Below, piece after piece: positions 300 to 54,832 of a DNA stretch of 64,000 nucleotides. The first letter of the stretch is position 1; each line of letters opens with the position of its first letter. The notes beneath the pieces were generated by a model. That model saw nothing but the letters and a program-made list of their open reading frames with translations, did not search any database and was not told where the DNA came from. The stretch lies in the IMG/VR virus record IMGVR_UViG_3300045921_000484, positions 89,258 to 153,257 of that record. One strand, 5' to 3'. The position numbers were made by a program, and so were the translations under genes. This stretch comes from a virus. Lineage: Duplodnaviria > Heunggongvirae > Uroviricota > Caudoviricetes.

Positions 300-659
300 T
301 TATTTTCTACTAATAGAATATTTGCTTTTTAATATATTTAAAACTTTTTCGTAATCTTTGGAAAAAGAATACCCGGATAATTTATTTAGTAGTTCATCCC
401 ATATTTTATCTTCTTCATGTGAGTCCCAATCTTCCAAAGTTTGTTTAAGAAACCCAAAAACATCAAATTTACAATTAAAATTATTCAAAATATATAAAAC
501 ATCATCTTTACTCAAATCATATTTTAATGTTAATTGCCCTATTTCTACCCACAATTCATGATTTCCTAAATCTTCCTCTTTACACAATTTTTTATATTCT
601 TCATAAAAATTAATTAATTTATCTTGGTTGTTTTCATTGAATTTTCTAATGTGTTTCAT
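300..659 (-). CDS. Small hypothetical protein with the recurrent MKHIxxFNE N-terminal module.
   Basis: 119-aa ORF. N-terminus MKHIRKFNENNQDKL matches the module seen at 44197, 46638, 47559, 47828, 49865 and 41879(-). Confidence 0.5.
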   Translation of the reverse strand: MKHIRKFNENNQDKLINFYEEYKKLCKEEDLGNHELWVEIGQLTLKYDLSKDDVLYILNNFNCKFDVFGFLKQTLEDWDSHEEDKIWDELLNKLSGYSFSKDYEKVLNILKSKYSISRK

Positions 660-8647: not shown

Positions 8648-10099
8648 ATGTCAAAATTTAACACAACATTACCAAAACAGAAAACTTTAACTGAAAACCT
8701 TGCAGGTGGTCAAGCTTATGCTCAATCTGATGAGTTAGCTCTTGTATCATTGTTATTAACATCATTTGTTAATAACCAGTTTTATAGAAGCGCTAAAGGA
8801 TCTTTAGATGAACTTAAAAATCTAGCATCTAAAATAAAAGATAAGGAGTTTGTTGCTAAGGCGGCTATCTATGCTCGTGACCGTTTCGGCATGAGAAGTA
8901 TTACACACGCTCTTGCTGGTGAATTAGCCTCTGAGTTAAATGGTAAGGAATGGGGTAAGAAATTCTATGATAAAGTAGTTGTTCGTGTTGATGATATGAC
9001 TGAGATTCTTTCATATTACCTTGCTTATAAGACTAACAAGGATAATCCAAAATTCCCAAATGCCTTAAAGAAGGGATTTGCTAAGGCTTTTGATAAATTT
9101 GATGGATATCAGTTAGCTAAGTATAGAGGTGAGAATAAGGAAGTAAAACTTGTTGATATTGTTAATATTGTTCACCCAGTTCCTACACAGAGGAACAAAG
9201 AAGCATTGTCTTTACTTATAAAGGGTGAGTTAAAGAATGCTGATACCTGGGAGTCTAAGTTGTCACAAGCTGGTCAAGTAGCTGAGTCTGAGGAAGATTT
9301 AGCATCACTAAAGGCAGATGCTTGGAAGAGTCTAATTTCTGAAAGAAAAATTGGATATTTTGCTTTACTAAAAAATCTTAGAAACATCATTTTTCAGGCA
9401 CCAGATTCGCTACCATCAGCTTGTGAATTACTAACAGATGAAAGATTAATTTCTAAGTCTAGAGTTCTTCCATTTAGATTTGCCACAGCTTATGAAGAAA
9501 TTAGTAAGTTAGGTTCTTCTACTGAGGTTAGAAATGTTCTTGTCGCTATCAATAAGGCATTGGATATTTCAGTTGTTAATGTTCCTATATTTGATGGTGA
9601 TACTCTTGTAGTATTAGACGTATCTGGTTCTATGAGTGGCAAGCCATCCGAAATAGCTTCATTGTTTGGTGCCATCTTAGCTAAGTCTAATAACTGTGAT
9701 GTTATGACATTCTCAACTAACTCACAGTATGTGTCTTACAATCCTATGGATTCTGTAATGACCATTAGAAATGGATTTAAATTTTCTGGCGGTGGTACCA
9801 ACTTTAAATCTATTTTCCAAAATGCTAACAAGAAGTATGATAGATTTATTATTCTATCGGATATGCAATCTTGGATTGGATATAATACTCCCTCTGCTGA
9901 GTTCGCTCAATATAAGAAGAAGTTTAATGCAAATCCGTATGTTTACTCATGGGACCTTGCAGGATTAGGAACATTACAATTTCCAGAAAATAATGTCTTT
10001 GCTTTAGCTGGATTCAGTGATAAAGTATTTGATATTATGAAGCTAATGGAAACTGATAAGAAGGCTCTTTTAAATGAAATTAAAGCTATTCAGTTTTAA
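8648..10099 (+). CDS. rsr: TROVE-domain (Ro60/Rsr-like) protein with C-terminal von Willebrand A domain.
   Basis: N-terminal TROVE-like signature (LAGGQAY....L.SLLL..F.NNQFYRS). vWA MIDAS motif VLDVSGSM (DxSxS) near residue 320. Size 483 aa. Confidence 0.7.
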   Translation: MSKFNTTLPKQKTLTENLAGGQAYAQSDELALVSLLLTSFVNNQFYRSAKGSLDELKNLASKIKDKEFVAKAAIYARDRFGMRSITHALAGELASELNGKEWGKKFYDKVVVRVDDMTEILSYYLAYKTNKDNPKFPNALKKGFAKAFDKFDGYQLAKYRGENKEVKLVDIVNIVHPVPTQRNKEALSLLIKGELKNADTWESKLSQAGQVAESEEDLASLKADAWKSLISERKIGYFALLKNLRNIIFQAPDSLPSACELLTDERLISKSRVLPFRFATAYEEISKLGSSTEVRNVLVAINKALDISVVNVPIFDGDTLVVLDVSGSMSGKPSEIASLFGAILAKSNNCDVMTFSTNSQYVSYNPMDSVMTIRNGFKFSGGGTNFKSIFQNANKKYDRFIILSDMQSWIGYNTPSAEFAQYKKKFNANPYVYSWDLAGLGTLQFPENNVFALAGFSDKVFDIMKLMETDKKALLNEIKAIQF

Positions 10100-19913: not shown

Positions 19914-20681
19914 ATGAAACACCTAATTAAATATAGATTATTTGAATCCGCCGGAGATATTGAATCTATCTGCAATAAATATAGTATACAAAATTTTACC
20001 ATAAATAAAGATGGATCTATTAATGTAGATGGTGATGTTGATCTTTCTGGTAAAAGATTAAATAAGCTACCTATTAAATTTAAAAATGTTACCGGTAATT
20101 TCTACTGTTCCAATAACAACCTAACCTCACTAGAAGGCGGTCCTAAATCGGTTGGTGGTAGTTTCTACTGCTCCTATAACAACCTATCTTCACTAGAAGG
20201 GGGTCCTAAATCGGTTGGTGGCGATTTCAAATTTTTCAATAACAACCTAACTTCACTAGAAGGCAGTCCTAAATCGGTTGGTGGTGATTTTGACTGTTGC
20301 TATAACAACCTAACTTCACTAGAAGGGAGTCCTAAATCGGTTGGTGGTGATTTTGACTGTTGCTATAACAACCTAATTTCACTAGAAGGGTGTCCTAAAT
20401 CGGTTGGTGGAAATTTCTACTGTGACAATAACAAATTAATTTCACTAGAAGGCTCACCGGAATCAATCGGTAGAGATTTCTACTGTAGTGATAATCCAGT
20501 AGAACAGATATGGAATTTATTTAAGGATAAGGATAAAATTGAATTATTTAATGATATGGATATTATTCAAGGTGATTCAATTATTCTTAATAGATTAATC
20601 TATTTTCTAGACCAAATAGGCAAGCCTAAAAGTGAAGAAGAATTAAGAAGGGTTATTAAGGATTATAAATTTATCCTTTAA
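19914..20681 (+). CDS. LRR-like 20-aa tandem-repeat protein, paralogue 1 of 4.
   Basis: 255 aa. Conserved N-terminus MKHLIKYRLFES..DIESICNKY. Seven or so 60-nt repeats (LTSLEGGPKSVGGDFxCxYNN fitting LxxLxLxxNxLxxL). Conserved C-terminus IWNLFKDKDKIELFNDMDIIQGDSIILNRLI.FLDQIGKPK. Confidence 0.65.
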   Translation: MKHLIKYRLFESAGDIESICNKYSIQNFTINKDGSINVDGDVDLSGKRLNKLPIKFKNVTGNFYCSNNNLTSLEGGPKSVGGSFYCSYNNLSSLEGGPKSVGGDFKFFNNNLTSLEGSPKSVGGDFDCCYNNLTSLEGSPKSVGGDFDCCYNNLISLEGCPKSVGGNFYCDNNKLISLEGSPESIGRDFYCSDNPVEQIWNLFKDKDKIELFNDMDIIQGDSIILNRLIYFLDQIGKPKSEEELRRVIKDYKFIL

Positions 20682-20691
20682 TATATACATT

Positions 20692-21585
20692 ATGAAACAC
20701 CTAATTCAATATAGATTATTTGAATCCAACAAGGATATTGAATCTATCTGCAATAAATATGGTATAGAGAACTGGACTATAAATGAAGATGGATCTATTG
20801 ACGTAAATGGTGATGTTGATCTATCTTATGAAGAATTAGATAAACTACCCATTAAATTTAGAAATGTTACCGGTAATTTCAATTGTTACTATAACAATCT
20901 AACCTATCTAGAAGGTTTTCCCGAATCAGTTGGTGGTCATTTTATCTGTTCCTTTAACAAACTAACCTCACTAGAAGGTGGTCCTAAATCGGTTGGTGGT
21001 AATTTTATCTGTTCCTATAACAATCTAACTTCACTAGAAGGGGCTCCTAAATCGGTTGGTGGTGATTTTATCTGTTCCCATACCGACCTAACCTCACTAG
21101 AAGGCGGTCCTGAATCGGTTGGTGGTGGTTTCGATTGTTGCAATAATTATCTAACTTCACTAGAAGGGTGTCCTAAATCGGTTGGTAGAGATTTCTGGTG
21201 TTACAATAATAAACTAACTTCACTAGAAGGCGGTCCTAAATCGGTTGGTAGAGATTTCTGGTGTTACAATAATAAACTAACATCACTAGAAGGGGGTCCT
21301 AAATGGGTTGGTCGCGATTTCTGGTGTTCTAATAACAACCTAACTTCACTAGAAGGCTATCCCGAATCAGTTGGTGGTCTTTTTAACTGTGAATATAACC
21401 CAGTCTATCAAATATGGAAATTATTTAAGGATAAAGATAAAATAGAATTATTTAATGATATGGATATTATTCAAGGTGATTCCATTATTCTTAATAGATT
21501 AATCGATTTTCTAGACCAAATAGGAAATCCTAAAACGGAAAGTGAATTGAGAAAGTTAATTAAGGATTATAGATTTGTTATTTAA
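20692..21585 (+). CDS. LRR-like 20-aa tandem-repeat protein, paralogue 2 of 4.
   Basis: 297 aa, nine or so repeats, same N- and C-terminal modules as 19914. Only 10 nt from the previous paralogue. Confidence 0.65.
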   Translation: MKHLIQYRLFESNKDIESICNKYGIENWTINEDGSIDVNGDVDLSYEELDKLPIKFRNVTGNFNCYYNNLTYLEGFPESVGGHFICSFNKLTSLEGGPKSVGGNFICSYNNLTSLEGAPKSVGGDFICSHTDLTSLEGGPESVGGGFDCCNNYLTSLEGCPKSVGRDFWCYNNKLTSLEGGPKSVGRDFWCYNNKLTSLEGGPKWVGRDFWCSNNNLTSLEGYPESVGGLFNCEYNPVYQIWKLFKDKDKIELFNDMDIIQGDSIILNRLIDFLDQIGNPKTESELRKLIKDYRFVI

Positions 21586-25233: not shown

Positions 25234-25509
25234 ATGCGATTTATAAAAAATTTTGAGAAGTTCCTTGAGAGTGTAGAGGCAGCTGATCCAATCGTTGATC
25301 CTGGTAAAACAAAAACAAAACCTACTGTTAAACCTATTAAACCAGGTGCTCCATCTCCTATTAGAAGGGATAAACCTTCTGTTGATCCTAAGCCAAAAGC
25401 TTTTACTGATAAGGAAAAAAAATTAGCTACATTTGATGATGTCGCGGAGAGATTTATTAATCTTATGAAAGAAAGGGGAGAAGATATAAAAAAATTTATA
25501 GATAAGTAA
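25234..25509 (+). CDS. Small basic, proline-rich hypothetical protein.
   Basis: 91-aa ORF. Its stop overlaps the next ATG (TAATG). Confidence 0.4.
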   Translation: MRFIKNFEKFLESVEAADPIVDPGKTKTKPTVKPIKPGAPSPIRRDKPSVDPKPKAFTDKEKKLATFDDVAERFINLMKERGEDIKKFIDK

Positions 25510-29752: not shown

Positions 29753-30214
29753 TCACTTGTAGTGAATTTTACTATTTTTATCCATAATATATCTTTGTGG
29801 ATTTACCGGTGGTTTATTTCCTTTTTTAGTTATTACTAATTCATAGTAAGCATCATTTTCACCAAAGTCTGAGAAATACACCTCTAACCCATATAGACCA
29901 AGTTTATCATTAACGTGTCCTATTAGTTCAATTATTTTCGGTTCTAAATAATGTAAAACAGGTAAGTTCATTGGAAATTCTGCTTTTTTATTATAAAATG
30001 TTACTACGAAGGAATTTGGATCTTTTTCTATAATAGAAGACTGTAATGAATTATCAACCATATAGTCTAATTCTGGAAACTCATCAGTTATTTCATAAAG
30101 TATTTCATCGAGTTCATAATACTTTATGCCAAAACTAACTGGTGGATTTCCAAATTCCACTTTATTATCTGGTGCATATCCCTCCTTTATAAATTGATCA
30201 TATTTTAGTATCAT
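29753..30214 (-). CDS. Hypothetical protein.
   Basis: 153-aa ORF. Confidence 0.45.
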   Translation of the reverse strand: MILKYDQFIKEGYAPDNKVEFGNPPVSFGIKYYELDEILYEITDEFPELDYMVDNSLQSSIIEKDPNSFVVTFYNKKAEFPMNLPVLHYLEPKIIELIGHVNDKLGLYGLEVYFSDFGENDAYYELVITKKGNKPPVNPQRYIMDKNSKIHYK

Positions 30215-31012: not shown

Positions 31013-31036
31013 GACCGATTAAGTTAAGTATGATAT

Positions 31037-31110
31037 GTACAAATATGAGAAGTAAATTTTTTCATTAAAAAAATTAAACAAATTAAGATTTATTTCTTAT
31101 ATTTGTTTTT
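31037..31110 (+). repeat. Copy of the recurrent intergenic element (ATGAGAAGTAAAT...TTCTTATATTTG) with TAnnTTTG -7 box at 31098-31105.
   Basis: Matches the 49521-49649 element. Most copies lie in the 44.2-51 kb array. Confidence 0.5.
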
Positions 31111-31168
31111 ATATTTAGTTATTTAAATTTTATTGGATTATCAGAAAGTGAAAAAAAATAAAGCATTT

Positions 31169-34914: not shown

Positions 34915-35172
34915 TTAATAACTACTTATTTGAGGTAGATATTCTTTAAGAACACTCAATGTTTCTTTGTCACTTGGAAAATACCAAATTTCATTATCAA
35001 ATAATGATACTTTACCATTTGAAATTAAATTTTCAAGAGCTGGCTCAGAAGAAAACATTTCTTCCTCTTCATTGCTTATTTCTAATCTAGCACTTCCAGA
35101 TTCTTCAGGTCCAGGCACTACATTTTCATCATCAATAGATTCTTTTATAAAATCATTCCACTTTTTAATCAT
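34915..35172 (-). CDS. Small acidic hypothetical protein.
   Basis: 85-aa ORF. The overlapping + strand ORF (34967..35203) is low complexity, so the - strand is preferred. Confidence 0.4.
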   Translation of the reverse strand: MIKKWNDFIKESIDDENVVPGPEESGSARLEISNEEEEMFSSEPALENLISNGKVSLFDNEIWYFPSDKETLSVLKEYLPQISSY

Positions 35173-38870: not shown

Positions 38871-39044
38871 ATGAAAACATATACTTGTATTAAAGATAAA
38901 GTCTTCATCTTTCAAGGTAGTTTTAATGGTAAATATGAATTTAAGGTTGGTGATACTATCACTTGTAATTTTGATGGAAGATTCTATATTTTCCCAAATG
39001 GTGGGAAGGTATATAGTGAAATTTTTAAGAAATATTTCATTTAA
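38871..39044 (+). CDS. Small ORF (57 aa). Preferred over the overlapping 38865..39083(-) and 38926..39114(+) track ORFs.
   Basis: A-rich leader then ATG. Its 3' half is duplicated as a fragment at 48827-48921, which supports this frame and strand. Confidence 0.4.
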   Translation: MKTYTCIKDKVFIFQGSFNGKYEFKVGDTITCNFDGRFYIFPNGGKVYSEIFKKYFI

Positions 39045-39314
39045 TTTTTTATTTTTTAAAGCTTGGTGGTTTAAGAATTCCAAAGTGTATAGTTATTGTT
39101 ATGCGACATCCTGATGATTTTGATTTTTTAAAAAAAAAACTTAGAATCAATGTAAAAAAGTTGAAAAAAACATTTTTAATTCTTTCCTTCGCGCTTGTTC
39201 GAGTCTTTTATAGTCTGCTGGAGGTGTAGGAAGAGGTATAATTTGGAAAGCATGAACATATAAAACATATTTATTTCCATTGATATAATAGTAAAATAAT
39301 TCTTATTATGTCTT

Positions 39315-41682: not shown

Positions 41683-41808
41683 TTAATTTATACTAAATCG
41701 GGCATCAGAATTGTTTTGAGTAGTACCAGTTTTACCGGCTATTGGAGTATTTAATTTATAGCGATAACGTAAACGTACTCCTGCTGCAATAATAGATAAT
41801 AGATTCAT
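41683..41808 (-). pseudogene. Fragment (41 codons) of a class A penicillin-binding protein transpeptidase domain (KTG motif region). Host-derived remnant.
   Basis: Minus-strand translation MNLLSIIAAGVRLRYRYKLNTPIAGKTGTTQNNSDARFSIN*. AGKTGTT.NN.DAWF is the PBP KTG(T) box. Locally GC-richer than surroundings. Isolated, with no upstream PBP sequence. Confidence 0.5.
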
Positions 41809-41852
41809 TTAGTTCATTGAATTTTTTGATATGTTTCATTGTTTTTTTTTTG

Positions 41853-41885
41853 AATATCCAAATGAGATTTGCAAAATTTCAATAA
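41853..41885. repeat. Right arm of the inverted repeat. Also overlaps the 3' end of LRR paralogue 41879..42790(-).
   Basis: See 41645-41680. Confidence 0.6.
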
Positions 41886-42790
41886 AATCTATAATCCTTA
41901 ATAACCCTTCTTAATTCTTCTTCCTTTTTAGGTTTTCCTATTTCATTTAGGAAATCGATTAATCCATCAAGAATAATTGAATCTCCTTGAATAATGTCCA
42001 TATCATTAAATAATTCTATTTTATCCTTATCTCTAAATAAATTCCATATTTGATATACTGGATTATTAATACAGTAGAAATACCCACCAATTGATTCCGG
42101 TGCGCCTTCTAAAGAGTTTAGGTTGTTATTGCAACAGTCGAAATGACCACCAACCGATTTAGGACCTCCTTTTAGTGAGGTTAGTTTGTTAAAGGAACAT
42201 ATGAAATGACCACCAACCGATTTAGGACCGCCTTCTAGTGAAGTTAGGTTGTTATTGTAACAGTAGAAATCCCTACCAACCGATTTAGGACCTCCTTCTA
42301 GTGATGTTAGTTTATTATTGTAACAATAGAAACTACCACCAACTGATTCAGGACCGCCTTCTAATGAGGTTAGGTCGTTATGGGAACAGATGAAATAACC
42401 ACCAACAGATTTGGGACTGCCTTGTAACGAAGTTAGATTGTTATAGGAACAAATAAAATTACCACCAACCGATTTAGGACCTCCTTCTAGTGATGTTAGT
42501 TTATTATTGTAACAGTAGAAACCACCACCAACTGATTCAGGACCGCCTTCTAGTGAAGTTAGTTTGTTATTGTTGCAGTAAAAATTACCGGTAACATTTC
42601 TAAATTTAAGTGGTAGTTTATCTAATTTTTCATAGGATAGATTAACATTACCATCTACATCAATAGATCCATCTTTATTTATAGTAAAATTTTTTATACC
42701 ATATTTCTCGCAGATAGATTCAATATCCTGATTAGATTCAAATAATCTATATTGAATTAGGTGTTTCATAATGTGTTTATTACTTTTCAT
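41879..42790 (-). CDS. LRR-like 20-aa tandem-repeat protein, paralogue 3 of 4.
   Basis: 303 aa, nine or so repeats. N-terminus MKSNKHIMKHLIQYRLFES, so it carries the small-gene N-terminal module plus the family N-terminus. C-terminal module conserved. Confidence 0.65.
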   Translation of the reverse strand: MKSNKHIMKHLIQYRLFESNQDIESICEKYGIKNFTINKDGSIDVDGNVNLSYEKLDKLPLKFRNVTGNFYCNNNKLTSLEGGPESVGGGFYCYNNKLTSLEGGPKSVGGNFICSYNNLTSLQGSPKSVGGYFICSHNDLTSLEGGPESVGGSFYCYNNKLTSLEGGPKSVGRDFYCYNNNLTSLEGGPKSVGGHFICSFNKLTSLKGGPKSVGGHFDCCNNNLNSLEGAPESIGGYFYCINNPVYQIWNLFRDKDKIELFNDMDIIQGDSIILDGLIDFLNEIGKPKKEEELRRVIKDYRFY

Positions 42791-43117
42791 GTTCGTAAAT
42801 ATTTTTATGTATATATTAAAAAAAATCTAAATATTTCCTCGGAAATTAACTTCCGTGTTAGAAAATTTTATAAAACCAGCCTCTAAAAATATACCCCGAT
42901 TATCTTAACCTTTTTTAAAGTTGAGTATAATCAGGGTAAGTACAAAACGTTATACACAATACTACTTTTGTGTTTCAAATTTATACTTTATCAAAATCAA
43001 ATTTTATCAAATTCTTACTTTTCATCAATTCTGTTTTAACTCTAACCAATCATCACATGGTATGGTTGGTTTAATTCTATTTGTATTTAAAAAAAGAAAA
43101 ATGAGATTTACAAAATT

Positions 43118-43942
43118 TCAATAAAATCTATAATCCTTAATTAAACTTCTTAATTCTTCTTCACTTTTAGGCTTGCCTATTTCGTCTAGAAAATAGATTA
43201 ATCTATCAAGAATAATTGAATCTCCTTGAATAATATCCATATCATTAAATAATTCAATTTTATCTTTATCCTTAAATAATTTCCATATTTGATAGACTGG
43301 ATTATTACTACAGTCTAAATCCCCTTCAACTGATTCGGGACAACCTTCTAGTGAAGTTAGTTTGTTATTGAAACATTTGAAATCTTCACCAACCGATTTA
43401 GGACCCCCTTCTAGTGAAGTTAGGTTGTTATTTTGGCAGTAGAAACTAAAACCAACCGATTTAGGACTGCCTTCTAGTGAAGTTAAATTGTTATAGGAAC
43501 AGATAAAATCACCACCGACTGATTCAGGACCTCCTTCTAGCGAAGTTATTTTGTTATAGGAGCAGTTGAAATGTCCAACAACCGATTTAGGACAGCCTTG
43601 TAGAGAGGTTAGTTTGTTATTGAAACACCAGAAACTGTCACCAACCAATTTAGGGCAACCTTCTAGTGATGTTAGTTTGTTATTGTAACAGTAGAAACCA
43701 CCACCAACCGATTTAGGACCTCCTTCTAGTGAAGTTAGATTATTATTGGAACAGTTGAAATTACCGGTAACATTTCTAAATTTAATGGGTAGTTTATCTA
43801 ATTCTTTATAGGATAGATCAACATCACCATCCACATCAATAGATCCATCTTCATTTATAGTAAAATTTTGTATACCATATTTCTTGCAGATAGATTCAAT
43901 ATTTTTGGGTCCAAATAATCTATATTGAATTAGGTGTTTCAT
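43118..43942 (-). CDS. LRR-like 20-aa tandem-repeat protein, paralogue 4 of 4.
   Basis: 274 aa. Same architecture. Upstream region 43943-44030 nearly identical to 42791-42860. Confidence 0.65.
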   Translation of the reverse strand: MKHLIQYRLFGPKNIESICKKYGIQNFTINEDGSIDVDGDVDLSYKELDKLPIKFRNVTGNFNCSNNNLTSLEGGPKSVGGGFYCYNNKLTSLEGCPKLVGDSFWCFNNKLTSLQGCPKSVVGHFNCSYNKITSLEGGPESVGGDFICSYNNLTSLEGSPKSVGFSFYCQNNNLTSLEGGPKSVGEDFKCFNNKLTSLEGCPESVEGDLDCSNNPVYQIWKLFKDKDKIELFNDMDIIQGDSIILDRLIYFLDEIGKPKSEEELRSLIKDYRFY

Positions 43943-44196
43943 AATGTGTTTATTATTTTTTATGTTCGTAAATTATTTTTATGTATATATTAAAAAAAAA
44001 TCTAAATATTTCCTCGGAAATACATCTAACTCACCACGTTATTTAGTAGAACATAATTTATTTTCAACTCTTTTTTTGGAAGATGAAACTGAATTTTTAG
44101 AAAAGTCGAAAGAACTTGGTGTTTTGAAAAAATGTTGTATAACGATACTCAGATATATTTAGGTTTTTTTAATATATATATACATAAAAATAATTT

Positions 44197-44436
44197 ATGA
44201 AGATGAAAAATAATAAACACATACAAAGTTTCAACGAACATCAAGAAAACTTGAATGGTGAACTCTCGAAGAGTGCTTCATCGAGTATATCTGATGTTAG
44301 TGGTAGTTTTACTAAAAAAGATTTGTTTGAAGCATTTTCATACTACGCTTTTAAAAGTATCAGTAATCAACCGTATAACGAAGATGAGTTATTAAAAGAA
44401 TTTGAAAAATGGTTCAAAAGAAAATATAAAAAATAA
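44197..44436 (+). CDS. Small protein with MK..NKHIxSFNEHQENL N-terminal module.
   Basis: 79-aa ORF. First gene of the cassette-like array. Confidence 0.45.
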   Translation: MKMKNNKHIQSFNEHQENLNGELSKSASSSISDVSGSFTKKDLFEAFSYYAFKSISNQPYNEDELLKEFEKWFKRKYKK

Positions 44437-45916: not shown

Positions 45917-46003
45917 TGTTTATGACGTTTACAAATAAATATGAGAAATAAATCTTTTCATTAAAATTAGACAAAGTAAGATTTATTTCTTATAATACAA
46001 ATG
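45917..46003 (+). repeat. Copy of the cassette boundary/promoter element.
   Basis: TTGTTTATGACGTTTACAAATAAATATGAGAAATAAATCTTTTCATTAAAATTAGACAAAGTAAGATTTATTTCTTATAATACAAATG. Confidence 0.6.
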
Positions 46004-46335: not shown

Positions 46336-46614
46336 ATGGAAAATTTCACATCAAAACTAATTTCAAATTTTGTAGAAGGAATTAACATTCTTAATTCAAA
46401 TAAACCGAAATGTGTCGAATACAATCATTTTGTATCGTCTAATAATTCAATAAAATTTGGAACAAATAAATGGGTAGATTTTGAAAGTAAGGAAGGTAAA
46501 AAATTGCAAGAATTAGGTTGGTATATGTATAATGGATTATGGAATTTTAATATTTATTCTGAAAATGGTGTCCCAGATTTTTCACCACTGAGTAAATTAA
46601 AAAATGTTTTATAA
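46336..46614 (+). CDS. Small hypothetical protein (array gene). Start revised to the ATG at 46336.
   Basis: The track ORF 46297..46614 begins at a TTG inside the TATATTTG -7 box (46303-46310). ATG at 46336 gives a 26-nt leader. Stop is followed by TATAACG. Confidence 0.4.
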   Translation: MENFTSKLISNFVEGINILNSNKPKCVEYNHFVSSNNSIKFGTNKWVDFESKEGKKLQELGWYMYNGLWNFNIYSENGVPDFSPLSKLKNVL

Positions 46615-46637
46615 CGTTCTTTTTGTATGCAAATAAA

Positions 46638-46921
46638 TGAATTTAATATGAAACACATACAAAATTTTAATGAAAATCAACAAAATAAAAAAAGCATATT
46701 TAGTTAAATTAACTGATGCTGATGATGATGTTTGTGCATTTTTGATTGATGAAGAAACTGCAAATAGTCCTAACATGTGTAATGATTTTGCTGTTAAATT
46801 ACCTTGGACAGACAAAGTTTTGGACGGTGATAATGATAGTTATACAAGGGATTATGCAAAAACAAAAGATATATTAGAAATAATCAAAAATGCTGAAAAA
46901 ATGGTTATTTTGTTGATTTAG
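46638..46921 (+). CDS. Array gene apparently frameshifted at an A7 run: an N-terminal module ORF (MKHIQNFNENQQNKKSIFS*) in one frame continues as 46670..46921 in another.
   Basis: ATG at 46638 encodes the canonical MKHIQNFNENQQ module. Stop after 19 codons. The track ORF 46670..46921 overlaps in a different frame. The A7 run at 46684-46690 is the junction. Confidence 0.35.
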
Positions 46922-47266: not shown

Positions 47267-47558
47267 TTCCACATAACGGATTGCAAATAATCACTAACGT
47301 CTTGATTTATATGTAGTTTGAGATTAAGCAGACAAAATAAACAAGATATTATGAAATTTAAATGTGAATAATATCTTTGAACGTGTTTCAAAAAACATCT
47401 TCTTTTTTGTCATACTTAGAAATGGAAAAGAATTAATTAAAAAAAGATTCAGATGTTATTTTTTTGCTTTAAGTTTATTGATAAATACATTAGAAGAGTT
47501 GTTGAAATAGATATATTTAGGTTTTTTTTTAATATATACTAAAAAATAACACACGAAG

Positions 47559-47771
47559 ATGAAAGATTTAAAACACATAAAAAGATTTAACGAGTCAGAA
47601 GAAAATTTGAATATATCTGATGTTAGTTATAGTGAAAAATTAAATAAGGCTGAAGAATTATTACAAAGTTTAGTTTATTTATCACAAACAGAAGAACTAA
47701 AAAGTTTTTTTGAAAATAATTATATCAGTGCTTATATGAAAGAAGTGGAAAAATTTTTAGATTCTCTTTAA
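47559..47771 (+). CDS. Small protein with MKDLKHIKRFNESEENLNISDVS module.
   Basis: 70-aa ORF. Upstream TTTTTAATATATACTAAAAAATAA leader shared with 49865 and 47828. Confidence 0.45.
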   Translation: MKDLKHIKRFNESEENLNISDVSYSEKLNKAEELLQSLVYLSQTEELKSFFENNYISAYMKEVEKFLDSL

Positions 47772-47827
47772 TTTTTCAAAAAAATAATTTAAGTTTTTAA
47801 TATTTACATAAAAAATAATTTACGAAC

Positions 47828-48211
47828 ATGAAAAGTAATAAACACATAAAAAGTTTCAACGAACATCAAGAAAACTTGGAATTTTTTGAAAAGACATTAA
47901 GTAGAATAAAAATTAAATATAAGGGAGATCCGAAGTCTTTATACCTAATTATATATACTGGATACGATGACTTTTTAAGTCATAATATTTATTATAAAGT
48001 TGATACAAAAAAAGAGGGTATTAAACTATATAAAAAAGAAGAAAAAAAATCAGCTATTGTAAATGGTTATAATATATACAATTACAAAGAAGTTTTTGAT
48101 ATGTATAAAAATATAGATAATATTCTTAAAAAATTTAATAATATAAGTGAGTGGGTAAAACGTGAGAATAATATGTTGAACAAATTTGGATTTGAGGTAG
48201 AGGAAATTTAA
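47828..48211 (+). CDS. Small protein with MKSNKHIKSFNEHQENL module.
   Basis: 127 aa. Leader and first ~16 codons near-identical to those of LRR paralogue 41879(-) and of 44197. Confidence 0.45.
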   Translation: MKSNKHIKSFNEHQENLEFFEKTLSRIKIKYKGDPKSLYLIIYTGYDDFLSHNIYYKVDTKKEGIKLYKKEEKKSAIVNGYNIYNYKEVFDMYKNIDNILKKFNNISEWVKRENNMLNKFGFEVEEI

Positions 48212-48454
48212 TTTTTTTTTTATTACATTACACATAACGTCCGCAAATATAAAACGTTTTAACACTAAACTTTAATTGAAAAATAGAATATGAATTAAAA
48301 ATACAACATTGGAAAACAAATAAAAATGTTTTATATTTGTTGTTATAAACAGTAAAATAAAAAACTTATGAAAAAACTAATTTTTGAAAAAAATATACAA
48401 AGTAAGATTTATTTTTTTTATATTTGTTGTTATATTTAATTAAATAAAAATTAT

Positions 48455-48601
48455 ATGGAGGAATTAGAAAATCAAATTGAAAAAATAAAACAAATCATCA
48501 ATGATGGTTCTTTTGAAAATAAATGGGTAAGTGATGATACTCTTATCATTTTAGAAAATCAACTAATTATTTTAGAAACACTTAAAAAACTAATGAAATG
48601 A
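48455..48601 (+). CDS. Tiny ORF (48 aa) after the promoter element copy at 48391-48454. Not in the track.
   Basis: MEELENQIEKIKQIINDGSFENKWVSDDTLIILENQLIILETLKKLMK*. ATGAAATGA overlap with the next gene. Confidence 0.3.
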   Translation: MEELENQIEKIKQIINDGSFENKWVSDDTLIILENQLIILETLKKLMK

Positions 48602-48786: not shown

Positions 48787-48826
48787 TTTTTGTTTAATTG
48801 AATATAACGTTTCTAAGATATATTTA

Positions 48827-48921
48827 GTGATACTATAACTTGTAATTTTGATGGAAGATTCTATATTTTCCCAAATGGTGGGAAGGTATATAGTAAAATT
48901 TTTATAAAATATTTCATTTAA
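48827..48921 (+). pseudogene. 3' fragment (start-less) of the 57-aa gene at 38871..39044.
   Basis: About 95% nt identity to 38946-39044 including the stop codon. No ATG upstream. Sits between two TATAACG boundary motifs. Confidence 0.55.
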
Positions 48922-49157
48922 TTTTTTATTGTTTATAACGTTTCTCAGATATATCTTGTTTGTGCAGTATATAATGTATTTGAATGATTTGTCATTTATA
49001 TCTATTCACTATGAAAAAAAAACAGTGAACATTTCCTGTATTTAGATCCAACAAAATATAATGCAAAAAAAGATGTTAGAAAAGATTTAATAAAAATTTA
49101 TCCTGAATAAAAAAATAATTCTTTTACTTTTTCGAATGTTTAATATATACATAAACG

Positions 49158-49520: not shown

Positions 49521-49649
49521 TTTTTTTATTGTTTATAACGTTTGCAAATATGAGAAGTAAATCTTTTCATTAAAAAATTAGACAAAGTAAGATTTATTTC
49601 TTATATTTGTTGTTATATTTAGTTAAATAAAAATTATACAAATAAAAAA
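49521..49649 (+). repeat. Most complete copy of the cassette boundary plus promoter element (-7 box TATATTTG at 49603-49610).
   Basis: TTGTTTATAACGTTTGCAAATATGAGAAGTAAATCTTTTCATTAAAAAATTAGACAAAGTAAGATTTATTTCTTATATTTGTTGTTATATTTAGTTAAATAAAAATTATA. Partial copies at 31037, 45917, 48391, 50665 and 50970 (tandem). Confidence 0.65.
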
Positions 49650-49793: not shown

Positions 49794-49864
49794 TTTTTGT
49801 TTAATTTAATATAACGTTTCTATTTAGGTTTTCTTTTTAATATATACCTTAAACATAATTTAAC

Positions 49865-50164
49865 ATGATGAAAAATAAGAATATACAAAATTTTGGAGAG
49901 TTCAATGAAAACTTGAATATATCTGATGTTAGTGATAGTGATTTATTTCAAGCGGAATACAACGGTGAGAAAATCAAAATTAAAAGAGAATTTTTGAAAC
50001 AAGGAGAAGAAAGAGAGTTATTAAAACATCTCAAAAAATTTAATTTAGGTTCGGGACACGAAGAAATGAAACTTTCAAAAATTGACAATAATAATTTTGT
50101 TTTTCGTTTAGAAACATACACAGGTGGTCCAACACAAACAATATATTTCAAGAGACTGAAATAA
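49865..50164 (+). CDS. Small protein with MMKNKNIQNFGEFNENLNISDVSD module.
   Basis: 99-aa ORF. Leader shared with 47559. Confidence 0.45.
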   Translation: MMKNKNIQNFGEFNENLNISDVSDSDLFQAEYNGEKIKIKREFLKQGEERELLKHLKKFNLGSGHEEMKLSKIDNNNFVFRLETYTGGPTQTIYFKRLK

Positions 50165-50663: not shown

Positions 50664-50664
50664 T

Positions 50665-50730
50665 TTTTATGTTTTATAACGTTTGCAAATATGAGAAGTA
50701 AATCTTTTCATTAAGGTTTATACTAATTTG
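50665..50730 (+). repeat. Boundary element copy (5' half only).
   Basis: TTTTATGTTTTATAACGTTTGCAAATATGAGAAGTAAATCTTTTCATTAAGG. Confidence 0.6.
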
Positions 50731-50802: not shown

Positions 50803-50973
50803 ATGATAGATTTTATTTTACAAGCATCAGTTATTATTTTTTTTATTGGTGGTATGATGTGGGTGTTGGACGATGATTACTTACCAGAAGTAAGACTATT
50901 AGGTAGTAGATATTCAAAAAAAATTATGTATTACAGTGCGATATGCTTTGTAGTTGCACTTATTATTAATTGT
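50803..50973 (+). CDS. 56-aa hydrophobic peptide gene, intact copy of 44511-44663. Not in the track (under 60 aa).
   Basis: MIDFILQASVIIFFIGGMMWVLDDDYLPEVRLLGSRYSKKIMYYSAICFVVALIINCL*. Confidence 0.35.
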
Positions 50974-51046
50974 TTATAACGATTGCAAATATGAGAAGTA
51001 TTGTTTATAACGATTGCAAATATGAGAAGTAAATCTTTTCAATAAA
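50970..51046 (+). repeat. Two perfect tandem 31-nt copies of the boundary element core (TGTTTATAACGATTGCAAATATGAGAAGTAT) plus AAATCTTTTCAATAAAATAG. Abuts the truncated recombinase.
   Basis: Copy 1 at 50970-51000, copy 2 at 51001-51031. Confidence 0.7.
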
Positions 51047-51508
51047 ATAGAAAATATCAAACATAAATCAATTCTAACTTTAACATATTCTGTTGGACTT
51101 AGAGTATCGGAAATTGTTAATTTAAAAATTGAAGATATTGATTCTAAAAGAATGTTGATTCATATTAAAAATAGTAAAGGTAAGAAAGACCGAATAGTTC
51201 CTCTTTCACAAAATGTTTTAGTACTACTTAGAGAGTACTGGAAGGAATATAAGCCGCAAAATTACCTTTTTAATGGTCAAAAGAATAATAAATATTCGAT
51301 TCAATCTTGTCAAAAACTTTATAAAAAGTATATAGATCAAAATTCTTCAATTCACACACTAAGACATTCTTCACTTACAAGTCTTTTAGAAAATGCAACA
51401 GATTTGAGAATTATTCAGAAAATGGCAGGACACTCTTCTTCTAAAACGACTGAAATTTACACTCGTGTTTCTAATCAATTATTAAATAAAGTTAAACTTA
51501 CAGTTTAA
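51026..51508 (+). pseudogene. 5'-truncated tyrosine recombinase (phage integrase catalytic domain only).
   Basis: Frame open from the TGA at 51023-51025. Translation ..KHKSILTLTYSVGLRVSEIVNLKIEDIDSKRMLIHIKNSKGKKDRIVPL...HTLRHSSLTSLLENATDLRIIQKMAGHSSSKTTEIYTRV carries the R..HxxR..Y catalytic signature. No N-terminal arm or core-binding domain. Homology runs upstream of the first ATG (51152) up to the repeat element. Confidence 0.6.
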
Positions 51509-52399: not shown

Positions 52400-53740
52400 T
52401 TAATTTTTCAAATAGTTTTCAAGTATAGTTTTTATTTCCTTATTTAACCCTACTAAATCCACATATCCTGAACTTGAAAAGTTTGGCTCTAATTCATAAT
52501 TGAAACACATATTAGATTGCCATTCATAGAACACATCAGCTACTGATCCAAGTTGAATTTTATAATCATAGTCCATTTCTTCCATCCAATCATTATTTAG
52601 TGGTAATGAGAAGAATTTTTCAACTTCTTTATATTCTTTTTTCTCACCAGAAGATGTCGTGTAATATTTTGTTACTTCCTTTTCGATTATTTTGTAGTTC
52701 TTAATTTCTTTATCCACAATATCTATGAATTCATCCCATAATTCTTTTTGATTTTGCTCAATACAAGCATCCATCTCCCAATAACCACAAGTTTGCTTTA
52801 TTTCTTTAACGATTTCTGATTTTTTACATAGTGTTTTTAGAGTACTTTCGGACTTTTCTTTTAGTAAGAATTCAATCAATTGATCTTCTGACATTTCTTT
52901 AACCTTTTCATAAACACTATTATAACACTCATCTTTTATTTTATTTATTACTTTTTTGATACCACCAATTTCTTCTATAACTTTTTTTATTAGAAGTATT
53001 GAGTTATCCTTATTTAATATATATTGTATTAGTGATGATGTATCTGGTTGATAATCACTGCTCAAATATTCACTATCATCTATACCATTAATTAATTCTT
53101 TTTTAAAAGATGAATTACTACTTAGTAAAGCATTTGACATATCTTCTACATCTATATGTGCGTACACCATATCACCCTTTAACTCATCATATTTCCACCC
53201 ATAGTAATCACAGAATTTTTTCGGAGTTATTTTCACTTTTTTATTTTCTATTATAAGAATACCAAGATATCCTTCAATCTCTGGAGATCCATCATCTGTC
53301 TTTATAAAGGATTCTTTTTTTACTACAATATTATTTATATCTAATTTACCACCTTCATCATATATTTCAACATCTGCTCCGAATAAATTATCATGTGCAA
53401 CCAAATCTCTAAAGTTATCACATGCAAAATGTAGTGAATCTGTTAAATCCTCATCAAGTGTTGGGTTTGTTGGATTCATATCAGGAAATATTGTTATAAA
53501 ATATGCTGGTGTTTCTTCACTACCATATTTTTTCAAATCTTGATTAAATACACTCTTAATAGTTTTGTCTTCTTTTAAGAATCTATCAGCAAATCCAAAA
53601 TCGATATTTATAATATATCTATTATGGATAAAATCTATAAGATATTCTTCTATATCATCTTTCGATAATGTCCATGTATTTTTATTAATATTTGGACTTA
53701 TCTGCTCATTTATAAACTGGTAGTATTTCTTTATTTTCAT
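52400..53740 (-). CDS. Hypothetical protein.
   Basis: 446-aa ORF. Confidence 0.55.
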   Translation of the reverse strand: MKIKKYYQFINEQISPNINKNTWTLSKDDIEEYLIDFIHNRYIINIDFGFADRFLKEDKTIKSVFNQDLKKYGSEETPAYFITIFPDMNPTNPTLDEDLTDSLHFACDNFRDLVAHDNLFGADVEIYDEGGKLDINNIVVKKESFIKTDDGSPEIEGYLGILIIENKKVKITPKKFCDYYGWKYDELKGDMVYAHIDVEDMSNALLSSNSSFKKELINGIDDSEYLSSDYQPDTSSLIQYILNKDNSILLIKKVIEEIGGIKKVINKIKDECYNSVYEKVKEMSEDQLIEFLLKEKSESTLKTLCKKSEIVKEIKQTCGYWEMDACIEQNQKELWDEFIDIVDKEIKNYKIIEKEVTKYYTTSSGEKKEYKEVEKFFSLPLNNDWMEEMDYDYKIQLGSVADVFYEWQSNMCFNYELEPNFSSSGYVDLVGLNKEIKTILENYLKN

Positions 53741-53803: not shown

Positions 53804-54832
53804 TTATATTTTAGAAAGTAATTCAGCTTTCTTTGTATTGAACTCCTCATCTGTTAATATTCCAGCAGAATGTAAGTCAGCAAGTTTTTTGATTAAATCA
53901 ATTACTTCATCTGACTCGCTATTTAGAGTATTTTTGAGATTTGTTTTTTTGATATCTTTAGTCTCAACAGGTTTTCTACTCTCAGGTAATATCTGAATGA
54001 TAGTTGAGGCTATGTAGTTATTGTCGAAGTCCATGTCTATCTCAGTGAATTTTTGAGAAGATGGTGTTCCTTTTTCAACTCTACCTGTTTCAATTGATCC
54101 ACTGATTGATGTAAGATTACCACTAAAATTTGATACATTTAGATTTCTTGTGTATAAACTATTATTGTTAACAGTATTTGTGGTTACATTATTTAATACT
54201 CCGCTATCTTTTCCGATATTTGTTGTTTCACTACCATATATTATATTATTGTTAACAGTATTTGTGGTTACATTATTTAATACTCCGCTATCTTTTCCGA
54301 TATTTGTTGTTTCACTACCATATATTATAGTTGGCATTGGTCTATATGGCCAGTATGGATAATATGGATAGTATGGATAATATACTTGGTGTCTTTCAAT
54401 TATAACTCTATCGAATCTTGTTTTCCAATCTTTTATTGTTAGAGTTGATTCTTTATAAAAGAAAACTTCCAATAATCCATTTTTCTCAATTGCTTTTTCT
54501 GATTCTTCTGATGATTCCACTTCATATGTTTTAAATATGAATTTCTTTTTATCATCAATAAAGCAATCAAGATAGAACCTTTCGCCTGGTTTAAGTACTA
54601 ATCCATTTTTTGAAATTGATTGTCCATTTAGTTTGATGTCACATAATACACATTCCTGTAATGGATTGTGAAGTTCTATTTCGAACTCTTGACCATCTTT
54701 TAAATAAACTTTACCGTTTTTGATTGATTTTCTTCCTCGGTCTGAAGGTTTTGATTTGTCTTTTTGGTTGTTTGTTACAATCCATGCGCTTGGTTTGGAC
54801 TGAATAGCGCGATTAGGTAATTTTGTTATCAT
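53804..54832 (-). CDS. Hypothetical protein with internal perfect tandem repeat, YYPYYPYYPYWPY tract and C-terminal SHOCT-like domain.
   Basis: 342 aa. C-terminus IDLIKKLADLHSAGILTDEEFNTKKAELLSKI (SHOCT-like). 2 x 28-aa repeat NNIIYGSETTNIGKDSGVLNNVTTNTVN. Confidence 0.55.
   Translation of the reverse strand: MITKLPNRAIQSKPSAWIVTNNQKDKSKPSDRGRKSIKNGKVYLKDGQEFEIELHNPLQECVLCDIKLNGQSISKNGLVLKPGERFYLDCFIDDKKKFIFKTYEVESSEESEKAIEKNGLLEVFFYKESTLTIKDWKTRFDRVIIERHQVYYPYYPYYPYWPYRPMPTIIYGSETTNIGKDSGVLNNVTTNTVNNNIIYGSETTNIGKDSGVLNNVTTNTVNNNSLYTRNLNVSNFSGNLTSISGSIETGRVEKGTPSSQKFTEIDMDFDNNYIASTIIQILPESRKPVETKDIKKTNLKNTLNSESDEVIDLIKKLADLHSAGILTDEEFNTKKAELLSKI
54161..54328. repeat. Perfect 2 x 84-nt tandem duplication inside gene 53804..54832.
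   Basis: 54161-54244 is identical to 54245-54328. Confidence 0.8.

Follow-up and report, generated by a model that had tools for sequence, protein, structure and literature searches.

The closest described counterparts of the element reported here are the promoter-early stem-loops (PeSLs) of T4-like phages, mobile regulatory cassettes in which a promoter is combined with a stem-loop and a start codon and through which modules are shuffled (PMC2839356, PMC4122927); they reach from an upstream stop to a downstream start, populate hyperplastic regions, and act as exchange points (Arbiol et al. 2010, PMC2839356; Comeau et al. 2014, PMC4122927). In the internal proteins of the T-even phages, the conserved N-terminal part is a proven peptide signal (capsid-targeting sequence, CTS), which the prohead protease removes (PMC3012670). 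In this work, we describe a repeated gene start found in 64,000 nucleotides of viral DNA (positions 89,258 to 153,257 of the IMG/VR record IMGVR_UViG_3300045921_000484; hereafter the window, numbered from its first letter) and in many public contigs. The copies constitute a cassette of ~130-150 bases, containing a promoter-like box, a start codon, and ~25 codons and closed by a conserved hairpin, that is spread among AT-rich uncultivated phages. As analyzed here, it would be a new form of PeSL-like cassette, one that extends into the coding region and holds the start of the gene inside the loop of the conserved hairpin.

The original prediction, made from the window sequence alone, was that at least seven otherwise unrelated genes share a portable 5' module composed of a promoter, a leader, and the first ~16 codons. 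The recurrent gene 5' ends are real, and all of the sites given hold, except that the gene designated D starts at 46648 and not, as had been stated, at 46638. A six-frame translation of the window contains seven matches to K[HN]I..F[NG]E, all within six residues of a start codon. At the DNA level, the repeat is 130-150 nt long and occurs six times in the stretch from 41.9 to 50.0 kb; an nhmmer search with a profile made from the 55 upstream nt found exactly these six in the window (E < 5e-6, the next best match having E = 0.13), before genes C (44197), E (47559), F (47828), and G (49865) and before two leucine-rich repeat (LRR) genes, with ORFs (open reading frames) ending at 42790 and 43942. 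A single module for all of the listed genes thus holds for C, E, F, G, and the LRR gene, which have upstream DNA in common, but not for A and D; these two, together with ORF B, have the peptide motif alone, with other synonymous codons and other upstream DNA. The sequence TTTTTAATATATAC, at no more than one mismatch, was observed nine times in the window against 0.63 expected, and a 39-nt coding stretch twice against an expectation of zero; chance is excluded as the source of the repeated starts. The proteins are, as predicted, unrelated past the module, with shuffled Smith-Waterman z-scores of 8-12 for the N-termini of C, E, F, and G and of ~0 for the remainders. The exception is a weak signal between the remainders of C and F (z = 4.4 by the same measure), which BLASTP does not see, and likeness of these two proteins beyond the leader was treated as not established. 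The shared 5' module therefore stands, but its true extent is ~25 codons, and four features had been absent from the original description: the enclosing inverted repeat, the (CAC)TAACG 3' boundary, the ORF B copy, and the copy at the second LRR gene (L2).

A scan for KHIxxFxExxENL returned 25 loci, all of which run on into NISDVSDS, lying outside the search pattern, and have conserved upstream DNA. The copy set assembled from three collections comprises at least 222 copies, 187 of them unique among the matches listed, and all fractions below refer to matches listed; individual public loci are designated by L and a three-digit number. A Met-initiated leader of 10-40 amino acids (aa) is present in 172 unique copies, being exactly 17 aa long in 102 of them, and the 5' arm of the hairpin is present in 129 of the 172. 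The canonical order starts with the stop codon of the upstream gene, then (CAC)TAACG or TATAACG, a spacer of ~5 nt, and the 5' arm TCAGATATATTTAGGTTTTCTTT. The loop, of 55-75 nt, contains TTAATATATAC, an A-rich leader ACTAAAATAAnAAACGAAG with A at -3, the ATG, and ~14 codons (typically MKDLKHIKRFNESE); it is followed by the 3' arm GAAAACTTGAATATATCTGA, translated as ENLNISD, and by TGTTAGTGATAGT (VSDS). Behind these comes an unrelated small cargo ORF lacking its own start codon (median 67 aa), a stop, and the next element. In 127 of 158 cases (background, 11%), the cargo stop is supplied by a 3' boundary of the form TAAC[GT] or has one within 22 nt, and cassettes form tandem arrays in L139 and L140. 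Cassette identity is ~75-95% across hundreds of contigs and many environments.

No Met at all is found in 27 of 153 cargos, and a Met near the junction occurs in 27%, against 31% by chance; an in-frame stop lies within five codons upstream of the leader ATG in 136 of 172 copies, and A occupies position -3 of that ATG in 147 of 172. These four features together identify the leader ATG as the real start. In Bacteroidetes, where initiation proceeds without Shine-Dalgarno (SD) sequences, A at -3 and low mRNA structure are positive initiation determinants (PMC6847099).

The 5' arm has its reverse complement in the 3' arm, which is part of the coding sequence, and the two form a helix of ~22 bp plus an outer 4-bp TAAC/GTTA helix. 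Over 34 distinct arm pairs, 95.9% of cells are paired, as compared with ~45% in slid controls, and TAAC/GTTA is paired in 99% of cells. Six pairs changed on both sides (23 cells), an extent of covariation reached by none of 500 shuffles; the outer arm was set by the search anchors, whereas the covarying inner arm was free. The recurrent arm "mismatches" are G-U pairs, always on the same side, and the helix has a conserved asymmetric internal loop (~5 nt versus 1 nt). The stem is A/U-rich, without a G/C tract, and no U-run comes after it. At six public-contig loci, RNAfold gives the long hairpin as the minimum free energy (MFE) structure, with z-scores of -2 to -6.5 relative to mononucleotide shuffles, and the sense fold is stabler than the antisense fold in 116 of 128 elements (-28.0 versus -22.7 kcal/mol, p = 6e-21).

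Synonymous sites in the 3'-arm codons show no variation (TCT 26/26, GTT 24/24, and ATA 26/26). In a sample anchored only on the 5' arm, variant copies encode H, R, G, S, D, or L in place of the N of NISDV, and their 5' arms have changed to match; these copies have wholly different leaders, but translation always starts inside the loop and passes through the arm in one and the same frame. Because the synonymous sites are invariant and the 5'-arm changes compensate, the ENLNISDVS half of the common N-terminus is seen as translated nucleic-acid structure.

Portability was assessed from the association of leaders with cargos. The 158 complete cargos fall into 122 BLASTP clusters, 103 of which are singletons. 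Near-identical cargos are preceded by different leader classes in at least six of the 19 multi-member families (eight were flagged, of which two were classifier artefacts), examples being L226, L138, and L220, and a single cargo was found behind each of MKHIKTQKQLNEASENL, MKTIEEKTSEL, and MEKKLKNIQTFEQHTDKNL. In L236, the G cargo is shared from the 3' arm on, with a different leader, and the cargos of the G family diverge no faster than the leaders encoded in the loop. Gene F has a mosaic structure, matching gene C in the 5' part as far as GAAAACTTG and, from TTTGAAAAG on, orthologues that start directly with MKHIKKFNE. Both LRR genes are joined to the module at AAACACAT, which is common with their own ATGAAACACCTA, and LRR paralogues at 19914 and 20692 are without the module. 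When the 43-52 kb region was compared with all loci using BLASTN, each module had more than 100 matches; the homology opens at TATAACG or the 5' arm and closes at the 3' arm, and few matches extend into the cargo. The window copies are decayed, with a 30-nt insertion in the 3' arm of C, a deletion in the 5' arm of G, a shortened 3' arm in F, and two leaderless 5' remnants. The 122 cargo families, the leader swaps, the replacement of the 5' end of F, and the border-limited homology all support what had been offered as one of two explanations of the module, a recombination-portable expression cassette.

The core of the box, TTAATATATA, has 22 copies in the window, 20 of which lie 4-43 nt upstream of gene starts on the same strand; the genes behind it include uvsX, a GNAT gene, a NUDIX gene, and three large paralogues. 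At the other loci (1.8 Mb), the box is upstream of starts in 80% of cases versus 13% for the reversed motif. Predicted by position, TTAATATATA looks like a genome-wide phage promoter. A promoter had been proposed as part of the module; the box is indeed inside it, but its core occurs genome-wide and is not module-specific. The form TTAATATATAC found in the cassette class studied here differs from the -33/-7 promoter type of Bacteroidetes.

The cassette has sister elements belonging to another class. One of these, at 49523..49640 (+), contains TATAACG, the inverted repeat CAAATATGAGAAGTAAATCTT / AAGATTTATTTCTTATATTTG, and TATATTTGTTGTTAT; more copies lie at 31018-31133, 45934-45994, 48326-48468, 50664-50724, and 50964-51055. 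They carry TTGTTAT with the host-type (Bacteroidetes) -7 box TAnnTTTG and are common to many cassette loci at 75-96% and to the huge phage LR756500 at 93%. The elements that come after cargo stops have TAACG in common, with an inverted repeat of different sequence. Since the sister elements share its layout, the cassette is one class in a family of intergenic hairpin/promoter elements.

An Xer-like tyrosine recombinase gene in the window (51044-51508) is truncated at about residue 115. Full-length orthologues are situated just downstream of the arrays in ~25 loci, e.g., L003:4038-4844, and L135 contains an in-frame fusion of a cassette cargo with the C-terminal half of the same recombinase. 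Among arrays with at least 4 kb of downstream sequence, 10 of 46 have the recombinase (62-82% identity) just downstream on the same strand, compared with 1 of 42 upstream. Against the integron integrase model TIGR02249 it scored 153.7 bits (cut-off, 265), aligning in two stretches that skip model positions ~210-255; its best match was of the XerA type, at 178 versus a cut-off of 220.

Taken together, these data make it reasonably probable, in our estimation, that the repeated window starts are copies, mostly somewhat decayed, of a mobile expression cassette of PeSL type that includes part of the coding sequence and whose cargos are swapped at the conserved arms. Such a cassette would supply transcription and translation start signals, together with a short disordered N-terminal extension, to any ORF behind it. 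The arms and boundary motifs, 20-35 nt of which are identical between cassettes, would be the crossover points for homologous recombination, and recombination there (the phage encodes UvsX) would swap cargos in frame, both within and between phages, much as PeSLs do. Codons in common (AAACACAT...) may let the cassette capture resident genes such as F and the LRR genes. Less certain is a role in which the hairpin clamps the flanks and thereby keeps the A-rich AUG loop single-stranded whatever the cargo; this would suit SD-less Bacteroidetes translation. Alternatively, and also less certain, the hairpin may be a processing, terminator, or insulator site for read-through transcripts.

Like PeSLs, the elements are small repeated intergenic cassettes situated among small ORFans and extending from an upstream stop to a downstream start; they have a promoter (a promoter-like box here) and a stem-loop that includes G-T pairs, they fall into several subclasses, and they appear to be points of homologous exchange between otherwise unrelated sequences, seen here as leader/cargo reassortment and border breakpoints. 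They differ from PeSLs in that the stem-loop encloses the box, the leader, the start codon, and ~14 codons, and in that the 3' arm is translated. With the 3' arm translated and the start in the loop, a shared stretch of ~25 aa is consequently added to the N-terminus of every cargo, which can do without its own start. Further differences are that the box of the studied class is not a host-type promoter, that the stem is a long A/U-rich helix of ~22 bp lacking a G/C tract or U-run, and that the same cassette occurs in hundreds of contigs and not merely in a related phage pair. The T-even internal proteins also have one short conserved N-terminus fronting diverse small proteins in a variable phage locus, but the universally conserved part of the cassette is constrained as nucleic-acid structure, and its leaders are interchangeable. 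Expression-vector leaders, such as the T7 promoter with the gene 10 leader and T7-tag, put a promoter, an optimised initiation region for translation, and first codons on arbitrary cargo. The cassette is similar in that expression would be independent of the cargo sequence, but it is natural, flanked by a hairpin, and set in an SD-less host context.

Several points weigh against the mobile-cassette reading. We infer the promoter, the function of the hairpin, and the recombination mechanism alike from sequence. If TTAATATATAC is a promoter, then its transcripts would not include the 5' arm, and the hairpin would thus act only on read-through RNA or on DNA; moreover, some leader types are without such a box in the loop. 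The window copies are degenerate, with the fold of cassette E having a z-score of -1.1 against mononucleotide and -1.3 against dinucleotide shuffles. About 25% of copies have no 5' arm but still keep the 3'-arm sequence, which may be due to ascertainment bias or to a second constraint such as the peptide. The Xer-like recombinase is enriched beside the arrays and would be unneeded for homologous recombination. In addition, MKHIxxFNE is kept as a peptide on ~58 hairpin-less unrelated proteins, for which the cassette model alone is insufficient.

This peptide motif is older and wider than the cassette. MKHIxxFNE starts number 74 in 72 IMG/VR contigs, nearly all of them being true ORF starts; the contigs are 4-508 kb long with a G+C content of 22-49% (nearly all 22-38%). 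Its synonymous codons vary freely (CAT 33/CAC 25, TTT 42/TTC 16, and GAA 45/GAG 13), and F orthologues at 64-75% identity retain it. A start-in-loop hairpin was considered as a general trait of MKHIxxFNE genes and rejected, their median duplex energy (-21.6) being no better than that of random positions (-22.1), as against -39.2 for cassettes. Many unrelated window proteins start with the pattern M-[KR]-x-hydrophobic-[KR]-x-[FY]-x-x-[EF], for example at 25234, 25509, 27018, 29753-30214(-), 34915-35172(-), and 52400-53740(-); a relaxed form of this pattern is 17-fold commoner at N-termini than internally and is carried by ~15% of window proteins. In the AlphaFold prediction for F, residues 1-16 have a pLDDT below 50 and a domain extends from about residue 20, one of five models being confident; a Foldseek comparison of the F model with the PDB gave nothing at E ≤ 0.001. 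As modeled, the flexible F leader outside the fold fits a tag or a passive extension alike.

A functional N-terminal tag was the second explanation put forward originally. In this case the leader, like the T4 CTS, would direct diverse small proteins to the prohead or to another common partner, such as a protease, and would perhaps then be cleaved; we regard this as unlikely, while giving it appreciable weight. The T4 CTS, MKTYQEFIAE, is cleaved after E and has a layout, MK-x-aromatic/aliphatic-x-x-F-x-x-E, similar to that of the leader. A strictly N-terminal MKHIxxFNE on so many unrelated proteins in the 72 viral contigs, with free synonymous codons, its retention among F orthologues, the enrichment of the relaxed pattern at window N-termini, and the predicted flexibility of the leader are all as expected of a tag. 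Within cassettes the picture is different, as the same cargo stands behind three unrelated leaders, other leader classes are wholly without the motif, and the G-family leader diverges no slower than its cargo. The sole part common to all cassette leaders, L-NISDV, is explained by base pairing, and the relaxed pattern, at ~15% of window proteins, is on many for a packaging signal. The tag proposal is therefore not supported for ENLNISDVS, where the constraint is one of base pairing, and the evidence for KHIxxFNE is mixed: outside cassettes it is conserved at the peptide level, whereas within them it is replaceable.

Integron cassettes, which have the layout GTTRRRY / RYYYAAC, suggest another comparison, namely that the elements are attC-like folded sites of an integron-like system of gene capture in phages, served by the Xer-like recombinase and each having its own promoter and start codon. 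Integrons too consist of arrays of small, mostly uncharacterised ORFs with imperfect palindromes, and the 130-150-nt elements share with them conserved outer TAAC/GTTA boxes, complementary and covarying inner arms, an asymmetric loop, a strand-biased fold, and a tyrosine recombinase that is often adjacent (the 10 of 46 downstream, same-strand cases, versus 1 of 42 upstream). To the left of their cargos stands GTTAG(TG) and to the right (CA)CTAAC, with the exact consensus in only some copies (GCCTAAC, GTTAGAC). We nonetheless consider this reading improbable, as we do its corollary that ORF fragments inserted behind the site would, unlike in classical integrons, be expressed as in-frame fusions. 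The recombinase falls under every curated cut-off and its alignment skips the IntI-specific insertion, i.e., it is no integron integrase; it is downstream and co-oriented, not divergent at an attI with Pc, and no attI/Pc arrangement was seen at these loci. No recombinase is nearby in 78% of the arrays with sequence available, and the copies in the window and L135 are truncated. The elements, moreover, differ from attC sites in lying at the 5' end of the ORF they serve, with a promoter-like box and a start codon, and their long identical arms would, together with the phage UvsX, suffice for homologous exchange. Inverted repeats of ~20 bp around a segment of ~60-100 bp with a promoter-like box and start codon could also flank an invertible promoter, as in Bacteroides-type phase variation (an inverton), inversion of which would toggle the cargo; a tyrosine recombinase is nearby and the hosts are predicted to be Bacteroidetes (PMC7162821). 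With an orientation-independent pattern applied to the three collections, none of the 172 interpretable unique copies listed is inverted, all being "on" and having a Met leader in frame; the arm mismatches are of the G-U type and always on one side, and the fold is biased to the sense strand. The inverton was rejected on the lack of inverted copies among those listed, and we consider it very improbable. Much the same low standing is given to ordinary paralogues with a conserved N-terminus and fast-evolving remainders, or to a transposon resembling a miniature inverted-repeat transposable element (MITE) placed before genes, as might be proposed from the several copies close together (41.9-50 kb) and the terminal inverted repeats. 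The remainders are dissimilar (z ~0), the cargos form 122 unrelated families, and F and the LRR genes have module-free relatives; on either side, conservation continues past the inverted repeats (TAACG... and ...GTTAGTGATAGT), target-site duplications were not seen, and the element is always in frame at an ORF start.

Of the window copies, cassette E has its 5' arm (TAGATATATTTAGGTTTTTTTT) at 47508..47529 (+), without the TAACG boundary; this arm pairs with 47601-47619 in both the MFE and centroid folds. The promoter-like box TTAATATATAC is in the loop at 47529..47539 (+), and the 3' arm, GAAAATTTGAATATATCTG + ATGTTAGT, translated as ENLNISDVS, is at 47601..47627 (+). Gene E (47559..47771 (+), 70 aa) consists of the leader MKDLKHIKRFNESEENLNISDVS and a unique cargo. 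Cassette F, at 47779..47878 (+), is degenerate; its 5' arm is decayed, its box TTTTTAATATTTAC is at 47794-47807, its ATG is at 47828, and its 3' arm ends after GAAAACTTG at 47878. The mosaic gene F (47828..48211 (+), 127 aa) joins the module leader to a cargo whose orthologues start directly with MKHIKKFNET/S. Cassette C occupies 44138..44301 (+), with TATAACG at 44138-44144, the 5' arm at 44149-44170, the box at 44166-44179, and ATG codons at both 44197 and 44203; the insertion in its 3' arm lies between GAAAACTTGAAT (44245-44256) and ATATCTGATGTTAGT (from 44287). Gene C (44197..44436 (+), 79 aa) carries a cargo whose family has other leader types in L108 and L113. Cassette G (49810..49933 (+)) has TATAACG at 49810-49816, an internal deletion in the 5' arm, the box at 49834-49847, the ATG at 49865, and the 3' arm at 49907-49933; orthologues of the cargo of gene G (49865..50164 (+), 99 aa) occur in L091, L099, L100, L204, L177, and L236.

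The copy fused to the first LRR gene, L1 (ORF 41879-42790), is at 42769..42843 (-), with MKSNKHI in frame with the gene's own MKHLIQYRLFES at the common AAACACAT. The copy before L2 (ORF 43118-43942), at 43943..44018 (-), now consists only of upstream DNA, its start having mutated from ATG to ATA. There are four paralogous LRR genes with 63-nt (21-aa) repeats in the window, at 19914-21585 and 41879-43942, and only the two on the minus strand have the module. The peptide motif alone is present in gene A (300..659 (-), 119 aa, MKHIRKFNENNQ...), which is without cassette DNA or hairpin; in ORF B (41756..41839 (-), 27 aa, MKHIKKFNELNES...), which is probably a gene remnant; and in ORF D (46648..46707 (+)), the 19 codons of which encode MKHIQNFNENQQNKKSIFS, including MKHIQNFNE, followed by a stop. 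A TATAACG at 46610-46616 overlaps the stop codon of the gene upstream of D, and a 1-nt change in an A-run (~46685-46694) would join D to an 83-aa ORF at 46670-46921; the break could be a sequencing error, a pseudogene, or slippage. The two leaderless remnants of cassette 5' ends lie within 48803..48960 (+), at 48803 and 48934 (TATAACGTTTCTAAGATATATTTAG and TATAACGTTTCTCAGATATATCTTG). A 112-nt repeat with 95% identity is found at 38947-39058 and 48824-48935, its second copy directly after a cassette 5'-arm remnant; the repeat had no Rfam match.

The window has a G+C content of 28.7% and encodes a UvsX-like recombinase, a DnaB-like helicase, and a TROVE-type RNA-binding protein, along with other phage functions. 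Its UvsX is 76% identical to those of genomes of 634 and 642 kb (Al-Shayeb et al.), the next matches being those of 636- and 735-kb genomes and then of Lak phages. All of these have been placed in the "Mahaphage" clade, with Bacteroidetes as predicted hosts (PMC7162821). UvsX similarity thus places the presumed window phage near the Bacteroidetes-infecting "Mahaphage" huge phages. None of the deposited phages in INPHARED is closely related to the window; megablast and blastn searches of the region against that collection gave noise and a single sister-element match, in LR756500, and found its complete huge-phage genomes to be without the cassette. Host assignments from the labels of metagenome-assembled genomes (MAGs), namely Methanolobus, Saccharofermentanales, and Bacteroidales, were judged unreliable and discarded. 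Up to five cassettes each are present in L139/L140 (JBBAEW010000011.1), L138, and L141, contigs that were binned into MAGs of Saccharofermentanales, Methanolobus, and Bacteroidales but are probably mis-binned and of phage origin.

Neither Pfam nor PHROGs assigned a family to A, C, E, F, G, the ORF downstream of D, or ten MKHI proteins from elsewhere, or a structural annotation to the large proteins nearby. Rfam models run over the cassette region and window detected tRNA-Cys alone, with no family covering the cassette, and the peptide strings were not found in a full-text search of the literature library used. The TROVE/Ro-like protein is encoded at 8648-10099, and no Y RNA or other Rfam family was detected nearby at gathering thresholds. 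An ORF at 53804-54832(-) contains an 84-nt tandem duplication (54153-54320, 96% identity). Related phages encode a genuine ClpP-type protease subunit (L003:4894-5619, L002:9231-9893, L125, and L154), with scores of up to 273 bits against NCBIfam ClpP models; its gene adjoins the recombinase gene in L003 and L004 and is near the F orthologue in L002-L004.

For annotation, the common N-terminus of ~25 aa is no evidence of homology or of a common protein function. The sequence handle (CAC)TAACG...CAGATATAT...ATATCTGATGTTAG could be used to collect cargo genes from metagenomes. The cassette is also a candidate natural "expression vector" for Bacteroidota, for which portable initiation regions are difficult to design, given their SD-less translation. 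The PeSL concept, described to date for T4-like phages, would be extended to relatives of the Bacteroidetes megaphages. If the mobile-cassette reading is true, it would explain how a large lineage of uncultivated phages gains, expresses, and trades hundreds of small accessory genes, the class that usually holds anti-defence and host-takeover functions.

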